This document shows, piece after piece, positions 2,818 through 15,336 of a stretch of DNA of 17,840 bases. The notes beneath the pieces are model-generated. The model was not told where the DNA came from, did not search any database, and saw only the letters and a list, made by a program, of their open reading frames with translations. The stretch comes from Promethearchaeia archaeon (lineage in GTDB: Archaea; Asgardarchaeota; Lokiarchaeia; Sigyniarchaeales; SOKP01): contig JAHQWJ010000128.1 in NCBI GenBank assembly GCA_029856125.1, positions 1 through 17,840 of the forward strand, written 5' to 3'. Within the stretch, counting starts at the first letter, position 1, and the number at the start of each line of letters is the position of its first letter. The position numbers and the translations under genes were made by a program.

Positions 2818-3345
2818 TTATTGAGTTCTTGACTCAACAATTCTACGGGTAAGTTCAGTAAAGGCGTCGTCAACGTTAATACCTGTTTTTGCGGAAGTCT
2901 CAATGTAAATACTACCTTCCGCCTCAGCAAAAGCTCGAGCCTCTTCTCTATCTATTACTTCTCCGACATCTTCAACTAAATCTGCTTTATTCCCTATTAA
3001 TACAAAAGGTATGTTTTCGCTGCTAAATTGTCTTATTTCAGTTAACCATTTTCTTGTTTCGATGTAAGTCTGTTCTCTTGTTAAATCAAACACTAATAAA
3101 GCGCCAGCAGCTCCCTTATAGAATGTTGATCGGATGAATTCGAAGCGTTGTTGTCCACCAATATCCCAAATTGAGAGTGTTGCTACTTCGCCTTGCCTAA
3201 ATTCCACATCCTTAGTTAAGATGTCTACACCTACCGTTAATTTGTAGTTCGCCGCAAATCGGTTTTTGATAAATCTCTGAACAAGACTCGTCTTTCCAAC
3301 AGCAGCAGCACCCGTAAGTAAAACTTTTAATTTAAAAATTGACAT
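2818..3345 (-). CDS. Rab-like Ras-superfamily small GTPase without a C-terminal prenylation motif
   Basis: G1 GAAAVGKTS, G2 YKLTVGVD, G3 WDIGGQ, G4 NKAD and G5 ETSAK. RabF-like segments FYKGA and LVFDLT. The protein ends ...RRIVESRTQ. Confidence 0.95.
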   Translation of the reverse strand: MSIFKLKVLLTGAAAVGKTSLVQRFIKNRFAANYKLTVGVDILTKDVEFRQGEVATLSIWDIGGQQRFEFIRSTFYKGAAGALLVFDLTREQTYIETRKWLTEIRQFSSENIPFVLIGNKADLVEDVGEVIDREEARAFAEAEGSIYIETSAKTGINVDDAFTELTRRIVESRTQ

Positions 3346-6305: not shown

Positions 6306-9300
6306 ATGATGGGAAATGAAGAACTTGCTCAAGAAGCTTTAAAGTATCTCGATTTGGCGCAAAAATTTGAGAATGAAAAAAATTTAGAAAAAGCTGTAGA
6401 GAATTACGAATTAGCAGCAAGCTATCTTAAGAATAGCGGCTTTATGATTGATAAAATAAGTGATATCTATTCTAGGATCGAAGAAATAAAGGATTTTGCA
6501 AAACAAGAGATGATGTATAATCAAGCAAGCGCAAAAAATCAACTTGAGCAATTACAAGACCAAGCCTTTTCTTTGTTAGATGGAGCTCAAAAATTAGAGA
6601 CAGATGGATTTTTGGAAGATGCAATTGAGCAATATAAAGCAGCAATCGAATTATTAATTCAAACAGGTTGGTCTGAAGCTCAATTAAGTAATTTACAAAG
6701 CAAACTAATAACATTATCAGAAAAGTTAAAACACCATCAAGCAATGACCTATGCCAAAATTGGGGAAGTTCAAGAACAAGATATCCTCCCTAAAGAAATG
6801 GAACCACAGGTTGTTAGCGCGTTTGGAAAGACGAAAAGTGTTGAAAAAGCTGGAGAATTAAAGAAGTTTAAAGATATGAAACAGCGAGAACAAGAGATAC
6901 AAAACGATGCCTTTGAGTTAATCGATAATGCAAAGTTTTTTGAAACCGATAAAAATTTCGATAAAGCAATTGAGAATTACGAAAATGCTGTAAAATTATT
7001 GAATTCTATAGGGTGGCACGAACAAACAAAGAATATCACCATAATTATTGAAAAATTAAAAAATGATAAAAAAGAGTATGAGCAATTTCGATCTGAGAAA
7101 CAAATAGAACCAACATTTACTAGAGAACATCCTGATGAATACGAAGAAGTGAAGACAAATATCTACAGAGATGAAGAAAAATTACAAATTGAAGCATTTA
7201 ATTTAGTGGATATTGGTAAAAAATTGGAAAGAGAGAAGAAATACGATTTAGCGATTATTAAATTTAATGTAGCAATTGAATTGTTTAAATCCATTGAATG
7301 GGACTCTTATATTCAACCAATTATAAACATGATCAAAAATATAGAAAATAAGCAAGCGCGCGAAGAGGAAGAGAATATTTCGAGACATAAAAGGGAGGAA
7401 CAGTTAAAAAACTTACAAGATACGATATATATTAAGGAAAAAGATGAAATTGTCGAAACTGCGAGAGAATTGGATAAGAGAAGATTAGAATACGAACAAA
7501 AAAGAAAACTAAATTTGAGGAAAGAAGAAAAGTTGTTTACAATTTTAGACGACGCTGATAGGATACTAAAAGAAGAATCTGATTATACCAAAGCAATTAA
7601 TAGATACACAGAAGCGTTAGGATATCTAAAGGAATTAGGAACAAATTGGGAAACACATGCTTCTACAATTGAAGAGACTATTTTAAGTATTAAAAAGATA
7701 GAAGAAAACAAAATTGAAAAAGATTTGGATCACCAGTCTAAGTTAGAACAACGCAGAAAAAGTGATTTAGAATATCAACAGCTCACCTCAATAGAGTTAG
7801 CAAAGGAAAGAGAAAAAATAAGGCAGAGAGAAGGTATTTTACAAGAAAAAAGAGAAGCTTTAGACCAACGCGAAAGTCGTAAAGCTGACGCGTATAAAGC
7901 TCTAGATGAAGCAGATTATTTCGTAAAAAAATCTGAATTAGATAACGCAATTGTTGCTTACCAAAAAGCAGGAAATATTTTTGCAAGCATACAATGGAAC
8001 GACGAGTTACATTTAATTGAAAATTCTATAAGAGAATTAGAAAATAGGAAAAGAGAACAAGCGTTTTCAAAACAAAAAGATATGATGAAATCCATAGAGA
8101 AATTTAAAGTTGAGCAGCAGTTTCAGGAACAAATATCAAAAAAGCTCCAATTAGAAAAAGAAAGCCTAAAACAGAAAAAAATATTGTTAAGAGATCAAAA
8201 AGCGGAATTGATGCATCGAGAGAAAAAAAAAGATGAAGCTTTTAAGATATTAGAGGATGCTCATTTTTATCTTGAAAAGGGCGATTTTGATAAAACAATT
8301 GAATACTATCAGCAAGTAACTAGCATTTTTGCTGAAATTCAATGGTATGATGAAATGGAAAGGATAGGGAACGCTATAATCGAAATCGAAAATAAAAAAC
8401 GGGATGCTACTCTAAAAAAACAAAGAGATATGGAAATTCTTATAAAGAAAGAAAGAGAGGATAGAGGATTTCAAGAAAAAATCATCAAAGAGATAAACAT
8501 AAAGAGAAAACAACTAGAAGAAAGAGAGATCGTTAAGAAAGAACGCGCTAACGAAATTAATTTTAGAGAAAAACAAAAGGAGGAAGCGTTTAAAATCTTG
8601 GACGAAGCTCAAAACTTTCTTTCTTTAGGAGAATTCAATTTAGCAATTGAAAGCTATAAAAGTGTAAATCAAATTTTTGCTCAAATTCAATGGATTGAAG
8701 AAATTGTGCTTATAAACCAGACAATTAACAAAATCGAAAATAAAAAGAAGGAACAGGAAATTAGGAAACAAAAAGAGTTCGAACAAATCATCAAAGAAGA
8801 TGCCGAACGCAAACAATTTCTTATTAATATTAAAATCCAAAGAGAAAGAGAAAAAAGATTAATCCAAAAAGAAAGGGCAATATTAGAAGTAAAGAAGGAA
8901 TTGAGTTCCCAGAACATTCTAAAACAACAAGAAGCGTTTAAAATTATTGACGACGCTGATGAATTTTTAGTGCAAGAAAATTATAATATTGCCATTGAAA
9001 TGTATCAAAATGCGCTTAATTCACTCAAAAATATAGGATGGACGGGAAACTACATTTTATTATTAGGAGAATCAATTCGAAATCTGCAATTTAAAAGGGA
9101 CGAAATAAAGCGCCAAAAATTACTCGATAAAGAACAGCTACGAAAAAACATCGAAGAAGAAAGAGAATTTGAGAGAAAGGTGACAGAAAGTTTTCAAAAA
9201 GAAAGAGAGAAGATGCTATCAAAGAAGATCGAGCTTCTTAAAAGGGAAGATATGAAGAATTTGATGGAGACAAAAAAGTTGGAAGCCTTTTCTATAATGG

Positions 9301-11231
9301 ATAAAGCAGCACAACTATTAGAAGAAGGGAAGTATGAAGAATCTATAGAGAAATATTATGACGCAGAGTTAATCTTAATTCAAATTCAGTTTCCTACTGA
9401 AATAATAAAAGATACTATAATAAAAATACAAGAAAAAAAACGGGAAGCCAATAAAACTAAACAACAAGAGTTAGAGTATGGAATTAGAAAACAAGAAAAA
9501 GAAAAACACTTTCTTAAGACCGTTGCTGATACAATGAAATACGAAGAAGAACAAATGAGAGTTAAACAGATTAAAATTAAGAAACAAGAAGATCTTAAAT
9601 TACATTTAGAGAAACGCAAAGAAGTGGCTTTTGAATTATTTGACGAAGCTGAAGTATATGTAAAACGTGCAGATTATAATAAAACTTTAGAGTACTATAG
9701 AAGCGCGGAGTTAGTGCTAAATGAAATTAATTACCCTACAAATTCGATTAAAGAGTTAATCGTACAATTTAAGGAGAAGAAGAGAATTAATGACCTCCAA
9801 AAACAAAAATTACTTGAACGAAAACTTCAAAATGAGCGCGAGAAAAATGATTTTCAAAAGAAAATTGCGAAAAATATCGGCAAAGAAAGAGAGCGCTTGA
9901 AGATAAAAAAGATTGAAGCTGAAAAATTAATTTTAACGCAAGCATTTATAGAAGGAAAAAAAGATGAAGCTTTTAATATTTTGGATGATGCTGAACTACA
10001 CATTAACAATTCTAAGTTTGAATTAGCTATTATGAGTTATAGGAAAGCGATGTTAATTCTTAATGAGATAAATTTTCCAACAGATTCCATTAGTGGTATG
10101 ATCGGAAAAGCAGAAGAGCTCAAAAGACGTGGAGAACTTGAGGAGGAACAAAAGTTAAAAAGAGAATTAGAACGGCTGAAAGAGGAAAGGAATTTGGAAG
10201 CTATCTTAACGGAAAGAAGACAGCAAGAAAGAGAAAAGAAGAAAGCTCAGCATATTGCATCTAAACAGAGAGAAAGAATTATTCAAGACCAAATGACATT
10301 TAGAGAAGCAGCATATTCTCTCTTAGAAGACGGTGGAAAATATATTAAAATGAGCACTCCTGATTACGACAAAGCAATTTCGTTGTATATTCAAGCAAGA
10401 GATTTATTAGCTGAAAAAATAGGTTGGGAACCCGAACTTAATAATTTAAACACTTTAATCAAGGATTTGATTAATGAGAAAGAACTTTATTTGAAAAAGA
10501 AAAAAGCAGAAGAAGAAAATACCATTAAAAGACAACAAGAATACGAACTATTTCGCGAAGAGATGAGGAAACAACAAATGGAAACTGTACTTAGAAAAAG
10601 AGAACAGCAAAAGAAATTTAAGCAGTTATATGAAACTCAGAAACAGTTTGAAAAAATTAAAGAAGAAGGATTAAAACTTATAGATGAAGGGAAAGAATTA
10701 ACAACTAAACATGAATTTAAGGATGCTTATATGAAATTTAATAACGCAATTACTAAGTTCAAAAATATAGGTTGGGGTGAACAAACAAAATTTATTGAGA
10801 AGGAAATTGAGAACGCGAGAAGATTCGAGCAAAAAGTAAATGATAGTAATCGGAAAATAAAAAAAATTCAACAAGAACTAGAAAACCAAAAGTTAAAAGA
10901 AGAGCGTAAAAAGAAAGAAGAAGAACAAAAAATTAAAGGAACGATAAAAGAAGTAAGCGTTTTATCAGGAGAAATTTCAGAATTAATCAAAATTAAAAAA
11001 GAAAAAGAAGAGTTAGAGTCTCGGCAGAAAAGAGAAATGGTTGTATCTAAATCAAAGGAATTCCGTAAAGACATGCTAAACTTATTAAATTTTAAGCAAG
11101 ATTTAACACGGGAATTGTTGGAATCAAAAAAAGCAATAGAAGATAAGAAAAAAGAAGCCGAAATTGCAAAGGATAAAGAAAAGGCAGATGAAATAAAGAA
11201 GATGTTGAAGGAAGTATCAAAAAACAAATAA
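6306..11231 (+). CDS. Giant (1641 aa) all-helical repeat protein: 14 MIT/TPR-like units separated by E/K/R/Q-rich helical linkers
   Basis: Uninterrupted 4.9-kb ORF. The consensus EAFxxLDxAxxxxxxxxYxxAIxxYxxAxxxhxxIxW (or IxFP/IxYP) recurs 14 times with highly charged intervening segments. No enzymatic motif, signal peptide or TM helix was seen. Confidence 0.88.
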   Translation: MMGNEELAQEALKYLDLAQKFENEKNLEKAVENYELAASYLKNSGFMIDKISDIYSRIEEIKDFAKQEMMYNQASAKNQLEQLQDQAFSLLDGAQKLETDGFLEDAIEQYKAAIELLIQTGWSEAQLSNLQSKLITLSEKLKHHQAMTYAKIGEVQEQDILPKEMEPQVVSAFGKTKSVEKAGELKKFKDMKQREQEIQNDAFELIDNAKFFETDKNFDKAIENYENAVKLLNSIGWHEQTKNITIIIEKLKNDKKEYEQFRSEKQIEPTFTREHPDEYEEVKTNIYRDEEKLQIEAFNLVDIGKKLEREKKYDLAIIKFNVAIELFKSIEWDSYIQPIINMIKNIENKQAREEEENISRHKREEQLKNLQDTIYIKEKDEIVETARELDKRRLEYEQKRKLNLRKEEKLFTILDDADRILKEESDYTKAINRYTEALGYLKELGTNWETHASTIEETILSIKKIEENKIEKDLDHQSKLEQRRKSDLEYQQLTSIELAKEREKIRQREGILQEKREALDQRESRKADAYKALDEADYFVKKSELDNAIVAYQKAGNIFASIQWNDELHLIENSIRELENRKREQAFSKQKDMMKSIEKFKVEQQFQEQISKKLQLEKESLKQKKILLRDQKAELMHREKKKDEAFKILEDAHFYLEKGDFDKTIEYYQQVTSIFAEIQWYDEMERIGNAIIEIENKKRDATLKKQRDMEILIKKEREDRGFQEKIIKEINIKRKQLEEREIVKKERANEINFREKQKEEAFKILDEAQNFLSLGEFNLAIESYKSVNQIFAQIQWIEEIVLINQTINKIENKKKEQEIRKQKEFEQIIKEDAERKQFLINIKIQREREKRLIQKERAILEVKKELSSQNILKQQEAFKIIDDADEFLVQENYNIAIEMYQNALNSLKNIGWTGNYILLLGESIRNLQFKRDEIKRQKLLDKEQLRKNIEEEREFERKVTESFQKEREKMLSKKIELLKREDMKNLMETKKLEAFSIMDKAAQLLEEGKYEESIEKYYDAELILIQIQFPTEIIKDTIIKIQEKKREANKTKQQELEYGIRKQEKEKHFLKTVADTMKYEEEQMRVKQIKIKKQEDLKLHLEKRKEVAFELFDEAEVYVKRADYNKTLEYYRSAELVLNEINYPTNSIKELIVQFKEKKRINDLQKQKLLERKLQNEREKNDFQKKIAKNIGKERERLKIKKIEAEKLILTQAFIEGKKDEAFNILDDAELHINNSKFELAIMSYRKAMLILNEINFPTDSISGMIGKAEELKRRGELEEEQKLKRELERLKEERNLEAILTERRQQEREKKKAQHIASKQRERIIQDQMTFREAAYSLLEDGGKYIKMSTPDYDKAISLYIQARDLLAEKIGWEPELNNLNTLIKDLINEKELYLKKKKAEEENTIKRQQEYELFREEMRKQQMETVLRKREQQKKFKQLYETQKQFEKIKEEGLKLIDEGKELTTKHEFKDAYMKFNNAITKFKNIGWGEQTKFIEKEIENARRFEQKVNDSNRKIKKIQQELENQKLKEERKKKEEEQKIKGTIKEVSVLSGEISELIKIKKEKEELESRQKREMVVSKSKEFRKDMLNLLNFKQDLTRELLESKKAIEDKKKEAEIAKDKEKADEIKKMLKEVSKNK

Positions 11232-11513: not shown

Positions 11514-13097
11514 ATGACTGTAAACAACAACAAGGAAGAGATCAAAAAATCCCGTATGTACGCCCGCCAACAATTAATCGACGGTTGGGATCAAGAAATT
11601 GTAAGCAATGGTTGTATCATGATCGTTGGTGTGGGAGCTTTAGGGTGCGAAATAGCAAAGGATTTTGCATTAATGGGTATTGGAAAAATAGTTTTAGTAG
11701 ACCTCGATACCATTGAAACATCTAATTTATCTCGCCAAATGTTATTCAAACCGGGGGATGAGGGGCGTCCTAAAGCAGAAGTCGCAGCTGAAAGGCTTAA
11801 AGACATGAATCCATTCTTGAAAGTTGATTTTTACTTTGAAAAACTCCAGAAATTAGCAATTTCGGTATACGAAGAATGTGATGTCGTCATTGCCGCTTTA
11901 GATAACTTTAACGCAAGGTTAGATTTGAATAAGATTTGTCTTCGGATGAAAAAACCAATGGTAGAGGGAGGAACAGTAGGTTTTGAAGGTCACGTACAAG
12001 TAATCATCCCTAAAGATTCAGAACTCGAATATAAAAACAGAGAATTTGAAATCGAAAATGTTGTAGACACGAGAATGTGGGAATTTGATAATCCAGAGTA
12101 CTTAGATGCTCAAAAAGAAATCGAACAGCTAGAATACTTGATAGAGAGATTAAAGCAAGAGAAACTCGAACCATTTAGAAGGCTAGTAAGAAAACAGGTA
12201 GAAGAAGAATTTGATAAAAAATACGCTGAGGATGTTTTGAATATAACGCCTTGTTACCGATGTTTAGTTCCGATCCCCCCTGCAGATGATAAATTAGTTG
12301 CGGCGTGCACTTTAAAAGGGCTTCCAAGAAACAGAAACCATTGCGTTATAAAAGCGGAGGTTATCTTCGAAAAAGAATACGGTTTTAAACCTGATATGAA
12401 TGTTGACGACGATGTGGTTAAATTAAAGTCTTTAGCTCAAAAAGAATTGGAGGCTCTAAGGGGCAGAGTTTTCAAAGAGAATGTTCCTGAAGAAAAGTTA
12501 GAAACGCTTACGCCAGAAGAAATTACTGAGTGGAAAGAAAATATTAAAGATACATTCGGAGAAGATTATAAATTTGAAGAAATGGAAAACATCTTAGGTA
12601 ATAAAATTGCAGCAATTCAATCAGTAAGTTCTATTATTTCTAGCATTCAATCGCAAGAAGCCTTAAAATTATTATTTCGATTGTATGGAAGAAATATCGG
12701 TCCACCCATGGATCCTCCTTATGTTAATTATAATGGTGTCTATGGCCAATTTGATCAATTACATATTACAAAACGGGAAGATTGTTTAGCGTGTGGGAAT
12801 ATTGAAGGTGAAGAAAATGTACAATTGGTCGTTCCTTTTGATTCCGATGTAGGCTACATTTTCAAAGCTATGAGAATAGTAGGTCACGATCTAGAACCCA
12901 TTCTCTGGATGATCACTAACCCTGTTAATAAAGAAATGTATTGGAATCCTTATATGAGTGGTGAGTTTAAGGATCCAACTATAAAACTAACGAAACTAAA
13001 AATAAAAAGCAACGATATAATAACTCTCACTCCACTTGGTAAGGCTAAAGTAGAATCAGAAATTAAAAAATACAATGTGATTATTACTTTCATGTAA
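11514..13097 (+). CDS. E1-type ubiquitin/Ubl-activating enzyme (ThiF/MoeB/E1 family; UBA3/UBA2-like architecture)
   Basis: YARQ; Gly-rich IVGVGALG; DLDTIETSNLSRQMLF; ALDNFNAR; EGGTVGFEGHVQVIIP. Zn-binding pairs PCYRC and DCLAC. Catalytic-Cys motif AACTLKGLPRNRNHC (C265) resembles the CT..PR...HC motif of UBA3/UBA2. A ~95-aa C-terminal domain sits at the position of the ubiquitin-fold domain. Confidence 0.9.
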   Translation: MTVNNNKEEIKKSRMYARQQLIDGWDQEIVSNGCIMIVGVGALGCEIAKDFALMGIGKIVLVDLDTIETSNLSRQMLFKPGDEGRPKAEVAAERLKDMNPFLKVDFYFEKLQKLAISVYEECDVVIAALDNFNARLDLNKICLRMKKPMVEGGTVGFEGHVQVIIPKDSELEYKNREFEIENVVDTRMWEFDNPEYLDAQKEIEQLEYLIERLKQEKLEPFRRLVRKQVEEEFDKKYAEDVLNITPCYRCLVPIPPADDKLVAACTLKGLPRNRNHCVIKAEVIFEKEYGFKPDMNVDDDVVKLKSLAQKELEALRGRVFKENVPEEKLETLTPEEITEWKENIKDTFGEDYKFEEMENILGNKIAAIQSVSSIISSIQSQEALKLLFRLYGRNIGPPMDPPYVNYNGVYGQFDQLHITKREDCLACGNIEGEENVQLVVPFDSDVGYIFKAMRIVGHDLEPILWMITNPVNKEMYWNPYMSGEFKDPTIKLTKLKIKSNDIITLTPLGKAKVESEIKKYNVIITFM

Positions 13098-14826: not shown

Positions 14827-15336
14827 CTAATCCATGGCATATTTAGAAGTCCATGACTTAGCTTTTGATTCAAACTTCTTTTGAGCCCTGAAATATTGCT
14901 CACCCGCCTCGTGGTTGAGAGGGTCTCCTGGGTTAAAGAAGGGTGGTTCTACGTGCATCATGCCTTTTAAGGCTTCTACGATATTGGTTAAAGTTTTTGA
15001 TGGAGTCCAGCCCGATGCGCCAGTTGAAGCGTCTACCTTGCCAACAAGGTCCGGATTAATCAGATCTAAACATATATTAAGTTTTCCTGGAGGTATGCTG
15101 CTGTCTATGTTAGGATGCCACATTAGTGTAACTGCGTATGCGTATGGAGGGGCAAATGGATAATTTTCCGGGAACTTGACTTCGAAAATGAACTTTCCTT
15201 TATTATAAGGTGTTCCTTCCTTCCCTATAATTGTAAGTCGAAGATGATCGATACTGCGCCCCCAAGGTTCGATGATAATATTAGCATCATCCTTGTAAGT
15301 TTCAATAGCTTCGGTATAATCGGTTTCTTCTCGCAT
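14827..15336 (-). CDS. E2 ubiquitin-conjugating enzyme (UBC fold)
   Basis: IIGKEGTPYNKGKF, FPENYPFAPP, WHPNI...ICLDLI (catalytic C89), WTPS, DPLNHEAG and C-terminal FESKAKSWTSKYA, all characteristic of E2 enzymes. Confidence 0.95.
   Translation of the reverse strand: MREETDYTEAIETYKDDANIIIEPWGRSIDHLRLTIIGKEGTPYNKGKFIFEVKFPENYPFAPPYAYAVTLMWHPNIDSSIPPGKLNICLDLINPDLVGKVDASTGASGWTPSKTLTNIVEALKGMMHVEPPFFNPGDPLNHEAGEQYFRAQKKFESKAKSWTSKYAMD

Follow-up and report, generated by a model that had tools for sequence, protein, structure and literature searches.

The window analyzed here is the 17,840-nucleotide (nt) stretch of contig JAHQWJ010000128.1 (assembly GCA_029856125.1) from a Promethearchaeia archaeon of the order Sigyniarchaeales. 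It carries a giant gene at positions 6306-11231 of the plus strand, stop codon included, encoding an all-helical repeat protein of 1641 amino acids (aa; 196.7 kDa, isoelectric point 6.8). The protein has no cysteine, and no transmembrane segment was predicted in its 1641 aa. Fourteen helical units were recognized along the protein, most of them strung on helical connectors of fixed length. The features of the gene are given below, with core-to-core distances measured from the conserved isoleucine of helix 3 of one unit (profile position 50) to the phenylalanine of helix 1 of the next (position 5).

6306 to 11231, plus strand: giant repeat-protein gene (open reading frame and translation)
6327 to 6728, plus strand: units 1 and 2, adjacent (76-aa spacing), with a core-to-core link of 30 aa in 72 of 72 loci
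6729 to 6899, plus strand: linker 2-3, containing proline and glycine; core-to-core length 57-74 aa, with 11 values between species
6900 to 7073, plus strand: unit 3, the top single match to Pfam MIT (residues 201-258, profile positions 3-57; 26.9 bits alone)
7074 to 7184, plus strand: linker 3-4, containing proline; core-to-core length 48-66 aa, with 12 values
7185 to 10832, plus strand: regular rod of units 4-14, with periods of 113, 119, 116 (three times), 117, 114 (three times) and 119 aa
8346 to 8627, plus strand: example of a continuous 94-residue helix, aa 681-774, made of unit 7 helix 3, the spacer and unit 8 helix 1 (AlphaFold2)
10776 to 11216, plus strand: C-terminal single helix of ~147 residues, aa 1491-1637, beginning as unit 14 helix 3 (AlphaFold2)
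11166 to 11228, plus strand: extreme C-terminus with the nearly invariant motif DKEKADEIKKML (ortholog conservation)

The original prediction, made from the sequence of the window alone, had placed 14 motif starts between 6336 and 10668, at nucleotide spacings of 228, 345, 285, 339, 357, 348 (three times), 351, 342 (three times) and 357. All 14 starts lie in frame 0 of the open reading frame 6306-11231, each marks where a motif of the A[FY]xx[LI][DE]xA type begins, and the spacings were correct, corresponding to 76, 115, 95, 113, 119, 116 (three times), 117, 114 (three times) and 119 aa. Degenerate versions of the motif occur in unit 1 (AL), unit 5 (LF) and unit 14 (GL). A profile built from the units independently recovered all 14 of them along with their spacings. 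The unit ends that had been read from the sequence, namely IQW in units 6-8 and I(Q/N)(F/Y)PT in units 10-12, were found as described, and the spacers were indeed rich in E, K, R and Q (fractions of 0.20, 0.18, 0.085 and 0.11, respectively) and nearly free of proline. From unit 4 on, the spacers contain no proline at all, the ten prolines of the protein being located in linkers 2-3 and 3-4 or in loops within units.

Length was also kept despite sequence divergence, as had been claimed, with paralogous periods sharing 17-48% protein identity. No repeat of ~348 nt was detected at the DNA level with Tandem Repeats Finder, and this, combined with the low identity among paralogous periods, indicates that the repeats are old rather than recent. 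Length is the only property that these old, diverged repeats have preserved. Of 48 full-length orthologs, 44 carry the same spacing signature without change, as do 72 species-level genome loci, a recurrence that places the pattern far beyond chance.

The links between units provided a sharper measure of this conservation. In the protein of the window, link 1-2 is 30 aa, link 4-5 is 68 aa, and every one of the nine links between units 5 and 14 is 71 aa; in the 48 full-length orthologs with 14 units these values were invariant except for one outlier link. Across the 72 species-level loci, link 1-2 measured 30 aa and link 4-5 measured 68 aa in every locus (72/72 for both), and the later links measured 71 aa in 780 of 787 instances, the remaining seven being 68 aa. 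The differences between periods of 114, 116, 117 and 119 aa are due, without exception, to loops inside the units. The proline-containing linkers of the same proteins took 11 lengths (linker 2-3) and 12 lengths (linker 3-4) across the 72 loci, and linker 2-3 thus serves as an internal control for the occurrence of insertions and deletions in the giant gene. Since these two linkers vary, insertions and deletions do arise in the gene and are purged only from the helical connectors, the geometry of which is under very strict selection.

Change in overall size was observed as well, but only in the form of whole periods. Orthologs fall into sharply separated size classes of ~1641 aa (14 units), ~2121 aa (18 units), ~2340 aa (20 units) and 2927 aa (25 units), with identical period lengths across all classes. 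Unit-by-unit comparison showed that the 18-unit form gained its additional units by collinear copying of units 7-10 and the 20-unit form by collinear copying of units 6-11, and that the ends stay orthologous. The sequences of the 18- and 20-unit orthologs therefore bore out the block duplications suggested from the unit ends, and the check for variation in repeat number among homologs, proposed at the same time, yielded 14, 18, 20 and 25 units. As a separate observation, one ortholog from the same genus (G245:C252:921-5813) has two in-frame TGA codons, which could reflect sequencing error, a pseudogene or recoding.

Two fragments were modeled with AlphaFold2, one covering residues 636-1000 (32 orthologs; predicted local distance difference test score, pLDDT, 85.3) and the other residues 1325-1641 (51 sequences; pLDDT 87.4). 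The plan of the period was the same in both models, with a helix 1 of ~21 aa and a helix 2 of ~17 aa followed by a helix of 93-94 residues that starts as the third helix of a bundle, continues as the spacer and ends as the first helix of the following bundle. These long helices span model residues 46-139 and 162-254 in the first fragment and 51-143 in the second. The helix at aa 681-774 had pLDDT values of ~80-94 per 10-residue block (90-94 from model residue 91 onward), and the next, at aa 797-889, was 93 residues long. The helices of the bundles are thus 17-21 residues long, with ~52 exposed helical residues between bundles, and the protein closes, past unit 14, with a single helix of ~147 residues. 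A possible folding back of the C-terminal motif onto unit 13 or 14 was not supported, as no docking in cis was seen in the model.

These models bear on whether the protein could be an ordinary tetratricopeptide repeat (TPR) solenoid, as the match of helices 1-2 to the TPR consensus, with its A-I-x-x-Y-x-x-A motif, and the TPR repeat protein labels given by JGI to some homologs might suggest. Neither fragment model contained TPR-like stacking of units or a solenoid, the units recur every 113-119 aa and not as contiguous 34-aa repeats, and all Pfam TPR families scored below their cut-offs, the best being TPR_11 at 24.8 bits against 26.8. A TPR solenoid is consequently a reading to which we give almost no credence. 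The models and the Pfam results bear out the description of isolated three-helix bundles on long helical spacers in place of a contiguous TPR array, and the models likewise reproduce the spectrin-like chain topology that had been anticipated, though the bundles are short here and the exposed connector is long. Searches with larger parts of the protein gave little: Foldseek with a whole model returned no match at E <= 0.001, phmmer of the whole protein against PDB sequences returned none, matches in the ESM Atlas, all scoring < 0.9, were to clusters that are unnamed or called TPR, and no solved chain covering more than one unit at low root-mean-square deviation (rmsd) was found in the structural searches.

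Single units were more informative. The whole-protein score against Pfam MIT (PF04212) was 86.3 bits (E 1.5e-24, 6 stretches; cut-off 30), which is a sum over several weak units, and MIT was the only Pfam family above its cut-off. Taken singly, 7 of the 14 units matched MIT at E <= 0.01 (best 1.8e-6), unit 2 being one of the two most MIT-like by sequence, and Atg38 was among the matches of the profile search (E 0.018). The structural searches with single units, one of them seeded by Foldseek and one unseeded, both ranked MIT domains best, the top superpositions being solved MIT domains with Z of 8.9-10.5 and rmsd of 1.3-1.9 Å over 60-68 residues. These included MITD1 (Z 10.5 and 10.1; rmsd 1.6 Å over 63 residues), katanin p60 (Z 10.4; rmsd 1.3 Å over 65 residues), VPS4A (Z 9.6) and the Sulfolobus Vps4 MIT domain (Z 8.9-9.0); the NRBF2 MIT domain (Z 9.1-9.8) aligned over 73-81 residues, including the start of its long helix. 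The MIT-like bundles of the original prediction were thus upheld by both the Pfam score and structural superposition.

Altogether, the structural plan and the pattern of insertions and deletions are well supported, and the interpretation that we consider probable is a cytoplasmic, rigid, modular rod presenting its bundles in fixed register, a design suited to a ruler or a multivalent docking platform for a periodic partner. The first three to four bundles, on flexible proline-containing linkers, would form a 'head', followed by units 4-14 strung on unbroken helices of 93-94 residues and then by the 147-residue terminal helix with its conserved end motif. Each residue of a helix accounts for a rotation of ~100 degrees and a rise of 0.15 nm, and from this geometry it follows that the connector acts as a rigid spacer that preserves phase. 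As the connector is one continuous helix, the addition or removal of one residue would rotate all that lies downstream by ~100 degrees and displace it by 0.15 nm. Nearly all such single-residue changes have been purged by selection, whereas whole blocks of 4 or 6 periods were added in other lineages. A rod of this kind may present its bundles, along with the basic and aromatic residues conserved in patches on the spacers, in fixed spatial register to a candidate periodic partner, for instance a filament, a lattice or further rods of its own kind. By analogy with MIT domains, which bind MIT-interacting motifs (MIMs), the bundles would most likely bind short amphipathic helices. The ruler function of the rod is, in our opinion, plausible.

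Several points weigh against this interpretation and against a firmer naming of the units. No single unit reaches the Pfam MIT cut-off of 30 bits (the best, unit 3, scores 26.9), the hhalign comparison to the Vps4 MIT domain of this genome was weak (38% probability over 23 columns), and the strongest sequence signal lies in helices 1-2, where it is the generic TPR consensus. Additionally, Z values of ~10 are not clear of those for designed three-helix bundles and TPR fragments, three-helix bundles being a common arrangement. For these reasons the units are called MIT-like and are not proven MIT domains. All of the structural evidence consists of single-chain predictions, and the advance of the rod, which would be ~11 nm per period and ~0.15 micrometre for 14 units, up to ~0.27 for 25, is an estimate from ideal helix geometry rather than a measurement on coordinates. 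Finally, the giant gene is not in the ESCRT (endosomal sorting complex) gene cluster, which lies on another contig.

The spacers had been proposed to be single alpha helices or coiled coils, and this claim stood in part: they form an unbroken long helix in the AlphaFold2 models, but by composition and periodicity they appear typical of neither. They are ~50% charged (E+K+R+D ~0.50), with Q at 0.11 and the hydrophobic residues LIVFM at 0.23. Opposite-charge pairs were not enriched at i,i+4 (z = 1.0) and were enriched at i,i+3 (z = 3.65) in a simple home-made test that is uncalibrated. No heptad (3.5) periodicity above shuffles was found in the protein or in the profile of conserved positions, a result obtained without a dedicated coiled-coil predictor, and hydrophobic pairs were not enriched at i,i+3, i,i+4 or i,i+7. 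The spacer thus appears to match the textbook picture of neither an ER/K single helix nor a coiled coil, although it does have sparse seams of conserved positions. Across orthologs, the conservation of the spacers comes close to that of the units (mean entropy of 1.0 vs 0.75 bit) and includes period-specific hydrophobic positions, a basic K-K-R patch right after helix 3 and an invariant phenylalanine in the middle of the spacer (F606, F722, F838 and F955). The N-terminal part of the spacer extends the core face of helix 3, and the C-terminal part leads into the core face of the next helix 1. The conservation of these exposed residues suggests contacts with a partner or with a second chain.

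The second of these options corresponds to a self-assembling former of filaments or bundles, similar to intermediate filaments, crescentin or spectrin, in which the spacers of two chains would pair, whether parallel, antiparallel or staggered, the bundles would act as structural knots, the exact lengths would keep the contacts in register, and the polymer would be a cytoskeletal element. Such a filament is a possibility that we take seriously while doubting it. The 23% of spacer residues that are hydrophobic, at conserved, period-specific positions continuous with the core faces of helices 3 and 1, argue for it, as do the conservation of the spacers at nearly the level of the units, the 147-residue tail helix and the invariant phenylalanine, which would be unusual on a lone exposed helix. 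Yet neither heptad nor hendecad periodicity exceeded that of shuffles, the hydrophobic pair spacings showed no enrichment, and an in-register parallel dimer alone would not demand residue-exact conservation between species. It was also observed that the conserved hydrophobic positions in the region 7185-10832 have a periodicity peak at ~3.1 residues (power 4.3 vs a shuffle maximum of 2.9 +/- 0.4), and not at 3.5 or 3.6.

The rod with bundles in fixed register, as we prefer to read the protein, shares features with several known systems. MIT domains, as in Vps4/CdvC, katanin p60, MITD1, NRBF2/Atg38, Vta1, USP8, calpain-7 and ULK3, have in common with the units a ~60-residue asymmetric up-down-up three-helix bundle with a TPR-like signature in helices 1-2. 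The MIT proteins described so far have, to our knowledge, a single MIT domain or a pair of them on flexible linkers, whereas the giant protein has 14-25 units, most of them joined into a rod by continuous helices. NRBF2 and Atg38 also have an MIT bundle that runs straight into a long helix, but theirs is a single module with a dimerizing long helix in a PI3K complex, and not a repeat. Spectrin rods (spectrin, alpha-actinin, dystrophin and the plakins) resemble the giant protein in that neighboring bundles share a continuous helix, last in one and first in the next, and in that the repeat length is strictly kept. The bundles of spectrin, however, abut and are built from helices of ~30 residues with a repeat of 106 aa, in contrast to the short bundles ~52 exposed residues apart and the 113-119-aa period observed here; the Pfam scan gave no match to the spectrin repeat PF00435 at E <= 1. 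Like ER/K helices and molecular rulers, such as the single alpha helices of myosin VI and X, nebulin and tape-measure proteins, the connectors would work as stiff, charged helical spacers of set length, with total length scaling with the number of modules, although the spacers, at ~50% charged and 23% hydrophobic residues, are without the i,i+4 charge-pair enrichment.

The MIT-like fold and the Pfam MIT score raise the question of a multivalent adaptor for ESCRT-III, whose units would bind the MIM tails of ESCRT-III proteins, or whose own MIM1-like C-terminus would recruit Vps4, with the rod templating or cross-linking ESCRT-III polymers. The genome contains Vps4 and one ESCRT-III gene together on another contig and a second ESCRT-III gene on a third contig, and the tails of these two ESCRT-III (Snf7-family) proteins end in MIM1-like helices of the L-x3-L-x2-L type. 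The C-terminal I-x3-L-x2-V of the giant protein lies four residues from its end, the same distance as the L-x3-L-x2-L of the C126 ESCRT-III copy; this likeness may be taken as a short-motif lead only. We nevertheless judge the adaptor unlikely. The gene is unlinked to the ESCRT cluster, the units bear only a weak likeness to the MIT domain of the organism's own Vps4, and no cis docking of the C-terminal motif on unit 13 or 14 was predicted. Additionally, the orthologous group is confined to one Asgard family whereas ESCRT occurs across Asgard archaea, and such a protein is unmentioned in the ESCRT survey PMC10936438.

Another candidate partner is lokiactin, along which the protein could serve as a side-binding scaffold or ruler in the manner of nebulin or tropomyosin. 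A period of ~11 nm would equal two actin subunits along one long-pitch strand. In a lokiactin co-immunoprecipitation (bioRxiv 10.1101/2025.11.30.690169, Suppl. Table 2), the L. ossiferum protein GNAMCCOK_04068 (270.5 kDa, 82 peptides) was listed as enriched, with a log2 ratio of 2.0 and an adjusted p of 0.0015, but it could not be tied to the giant-protein family: no family relative named for L. ossiferum was found, no family member of 270.5 kDa was among those compared, and any such relative would be a distant paralog. The text of that study names profilin, gelsolins, an ARF GTPase and BAR proteins, and neither the giant family nor the 270.5-kDa protein. A lokiactin scaffold in this specific sense therefore seems quite unlikely. 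A broader version of the preferred reading, in which the rod is a register-keeping side-binder or ruler of a periodic polymer (lokiactin or an ESCRT-III filament) that docks every ~11 nm at fixed azimuth, and in which the number of units (14, 18, 20 or 25) sets a cellular length such as the size of a protrusion or filament bundle, is offered as a speculation, and one more apt to be wrong than right.

The surroundings of the gene were compared across 78 related loci. Three neighboring genes of the window are of particular relevance.

11514 to 13097, plus strand: eukaryote-like E1 (ThiF family, 527 aa), co-directional, 283 nt downstream of the giant gene (Pfam)
14827 to 15336, minus strand: E2 (UQ_con) (Pfam)
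2818 to 3345, minus strand: Ras/Rab-family small GTPase (Pfam)

Homologs of E1 sit downstream, in the same orientation, in 70 of the 78 loci, and homologs of E2 are present in 55, from which it could be proposed that the giant protein is a scaffold or substrate adaptor of the neighboring ubiquitin-like conjugation system. The order aspartate kinase, Ras-like GTPase, RACo, giant gene, E1, HAD, (ferredoxin), E2, M1 peptidase is, however, kept in most of the loci, and since the unrelated aspartate kinase, RACo, HAD and M1 peptidase genes are equally syntenic, the adjacency may merely mirror conserved gene order. The intergenic gap is 283 nt, and in several loci a subtilase gene (Peptidase_S8, ~511 aa) lies on the opposite strand between the giant gene and E1, for example at L012:14934-16469 (-) and L031:17048-18592 (-), so the two genes do not form an obligatory operon. 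Altogether the link to the ubiquitin system is weak, and we regard such a scaffold as very unlikely. The Pfam match of the E1 spans residues 21-425 for a profile of 238 positions, which implies a large insertion, and no gene for a ubiquitin-like modifier was seen in the window. The small GTPase, always two genes upstream of the giant gene and on the opposite strand, is 83-98% identical across loci where the giant protein is only 38-89% identical.

All homologs came from Asgard metagenome-assembled genomes labeled Promethearchaeota or Lokiarchaeota. The orthologous group, with one locus per genome, was found in at least 112 of the 134 genomes of its own GTDB family; outside that family, one weak match came from a sister family, and 266 other Asgard genomes gave no match, these counts being a floor set by a strict first-pass search. 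The genome from which the window comes also encodes two paralogs with irregular unit spacing, of 1371 aa (contig C38:16986-21098, minus strand) and 454 aa (C36:1458-2819, minus strand), and periods of 116-119 aa are only occasional in the former. A search with a one-period profile retrieved 764 cluster representatives at E <= 0.001, a superfamily that includes an 18-unit protein with all periods of 116-117 aa as well as families with periods of 120 and 127 aa, and in which the 71-aa link recurs in many members. The idea that these longer periods arise from helical turns added to the connector was rejected, as the extra residues are in the proline-containing loop between helices 1 and 2 of a variant unit type. 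Two distant relatives, DSAG12_01611 of the cultured strain MK-D1 (QEE15784.2, 2547 aa) and WP_457556872.1 from the closed genome of Ca. Harpocratesius, both have a 116-aa period and 71-aa links at both ends, plus long regions that are non-repeat or of variant repeats (127-aa periods). A search of distant relatives for informative fused domains found none. A published description of the giant-protein family was not found in the literature searched.

An exact connector length combined with change in size by whole modules is the signature expected of a structure that matches something periodic, and it is found here in a large, conserved, single-copy protein whose partner could reveal a new cytoskeletal or ESCRT-linked element. 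The presence of a relative in the cultured strain MK-D1 makes the question experimentally accessible. Identification of the partner would also show whether MIT-type modules served as multivalent scaffolds before eukaryotes arose.

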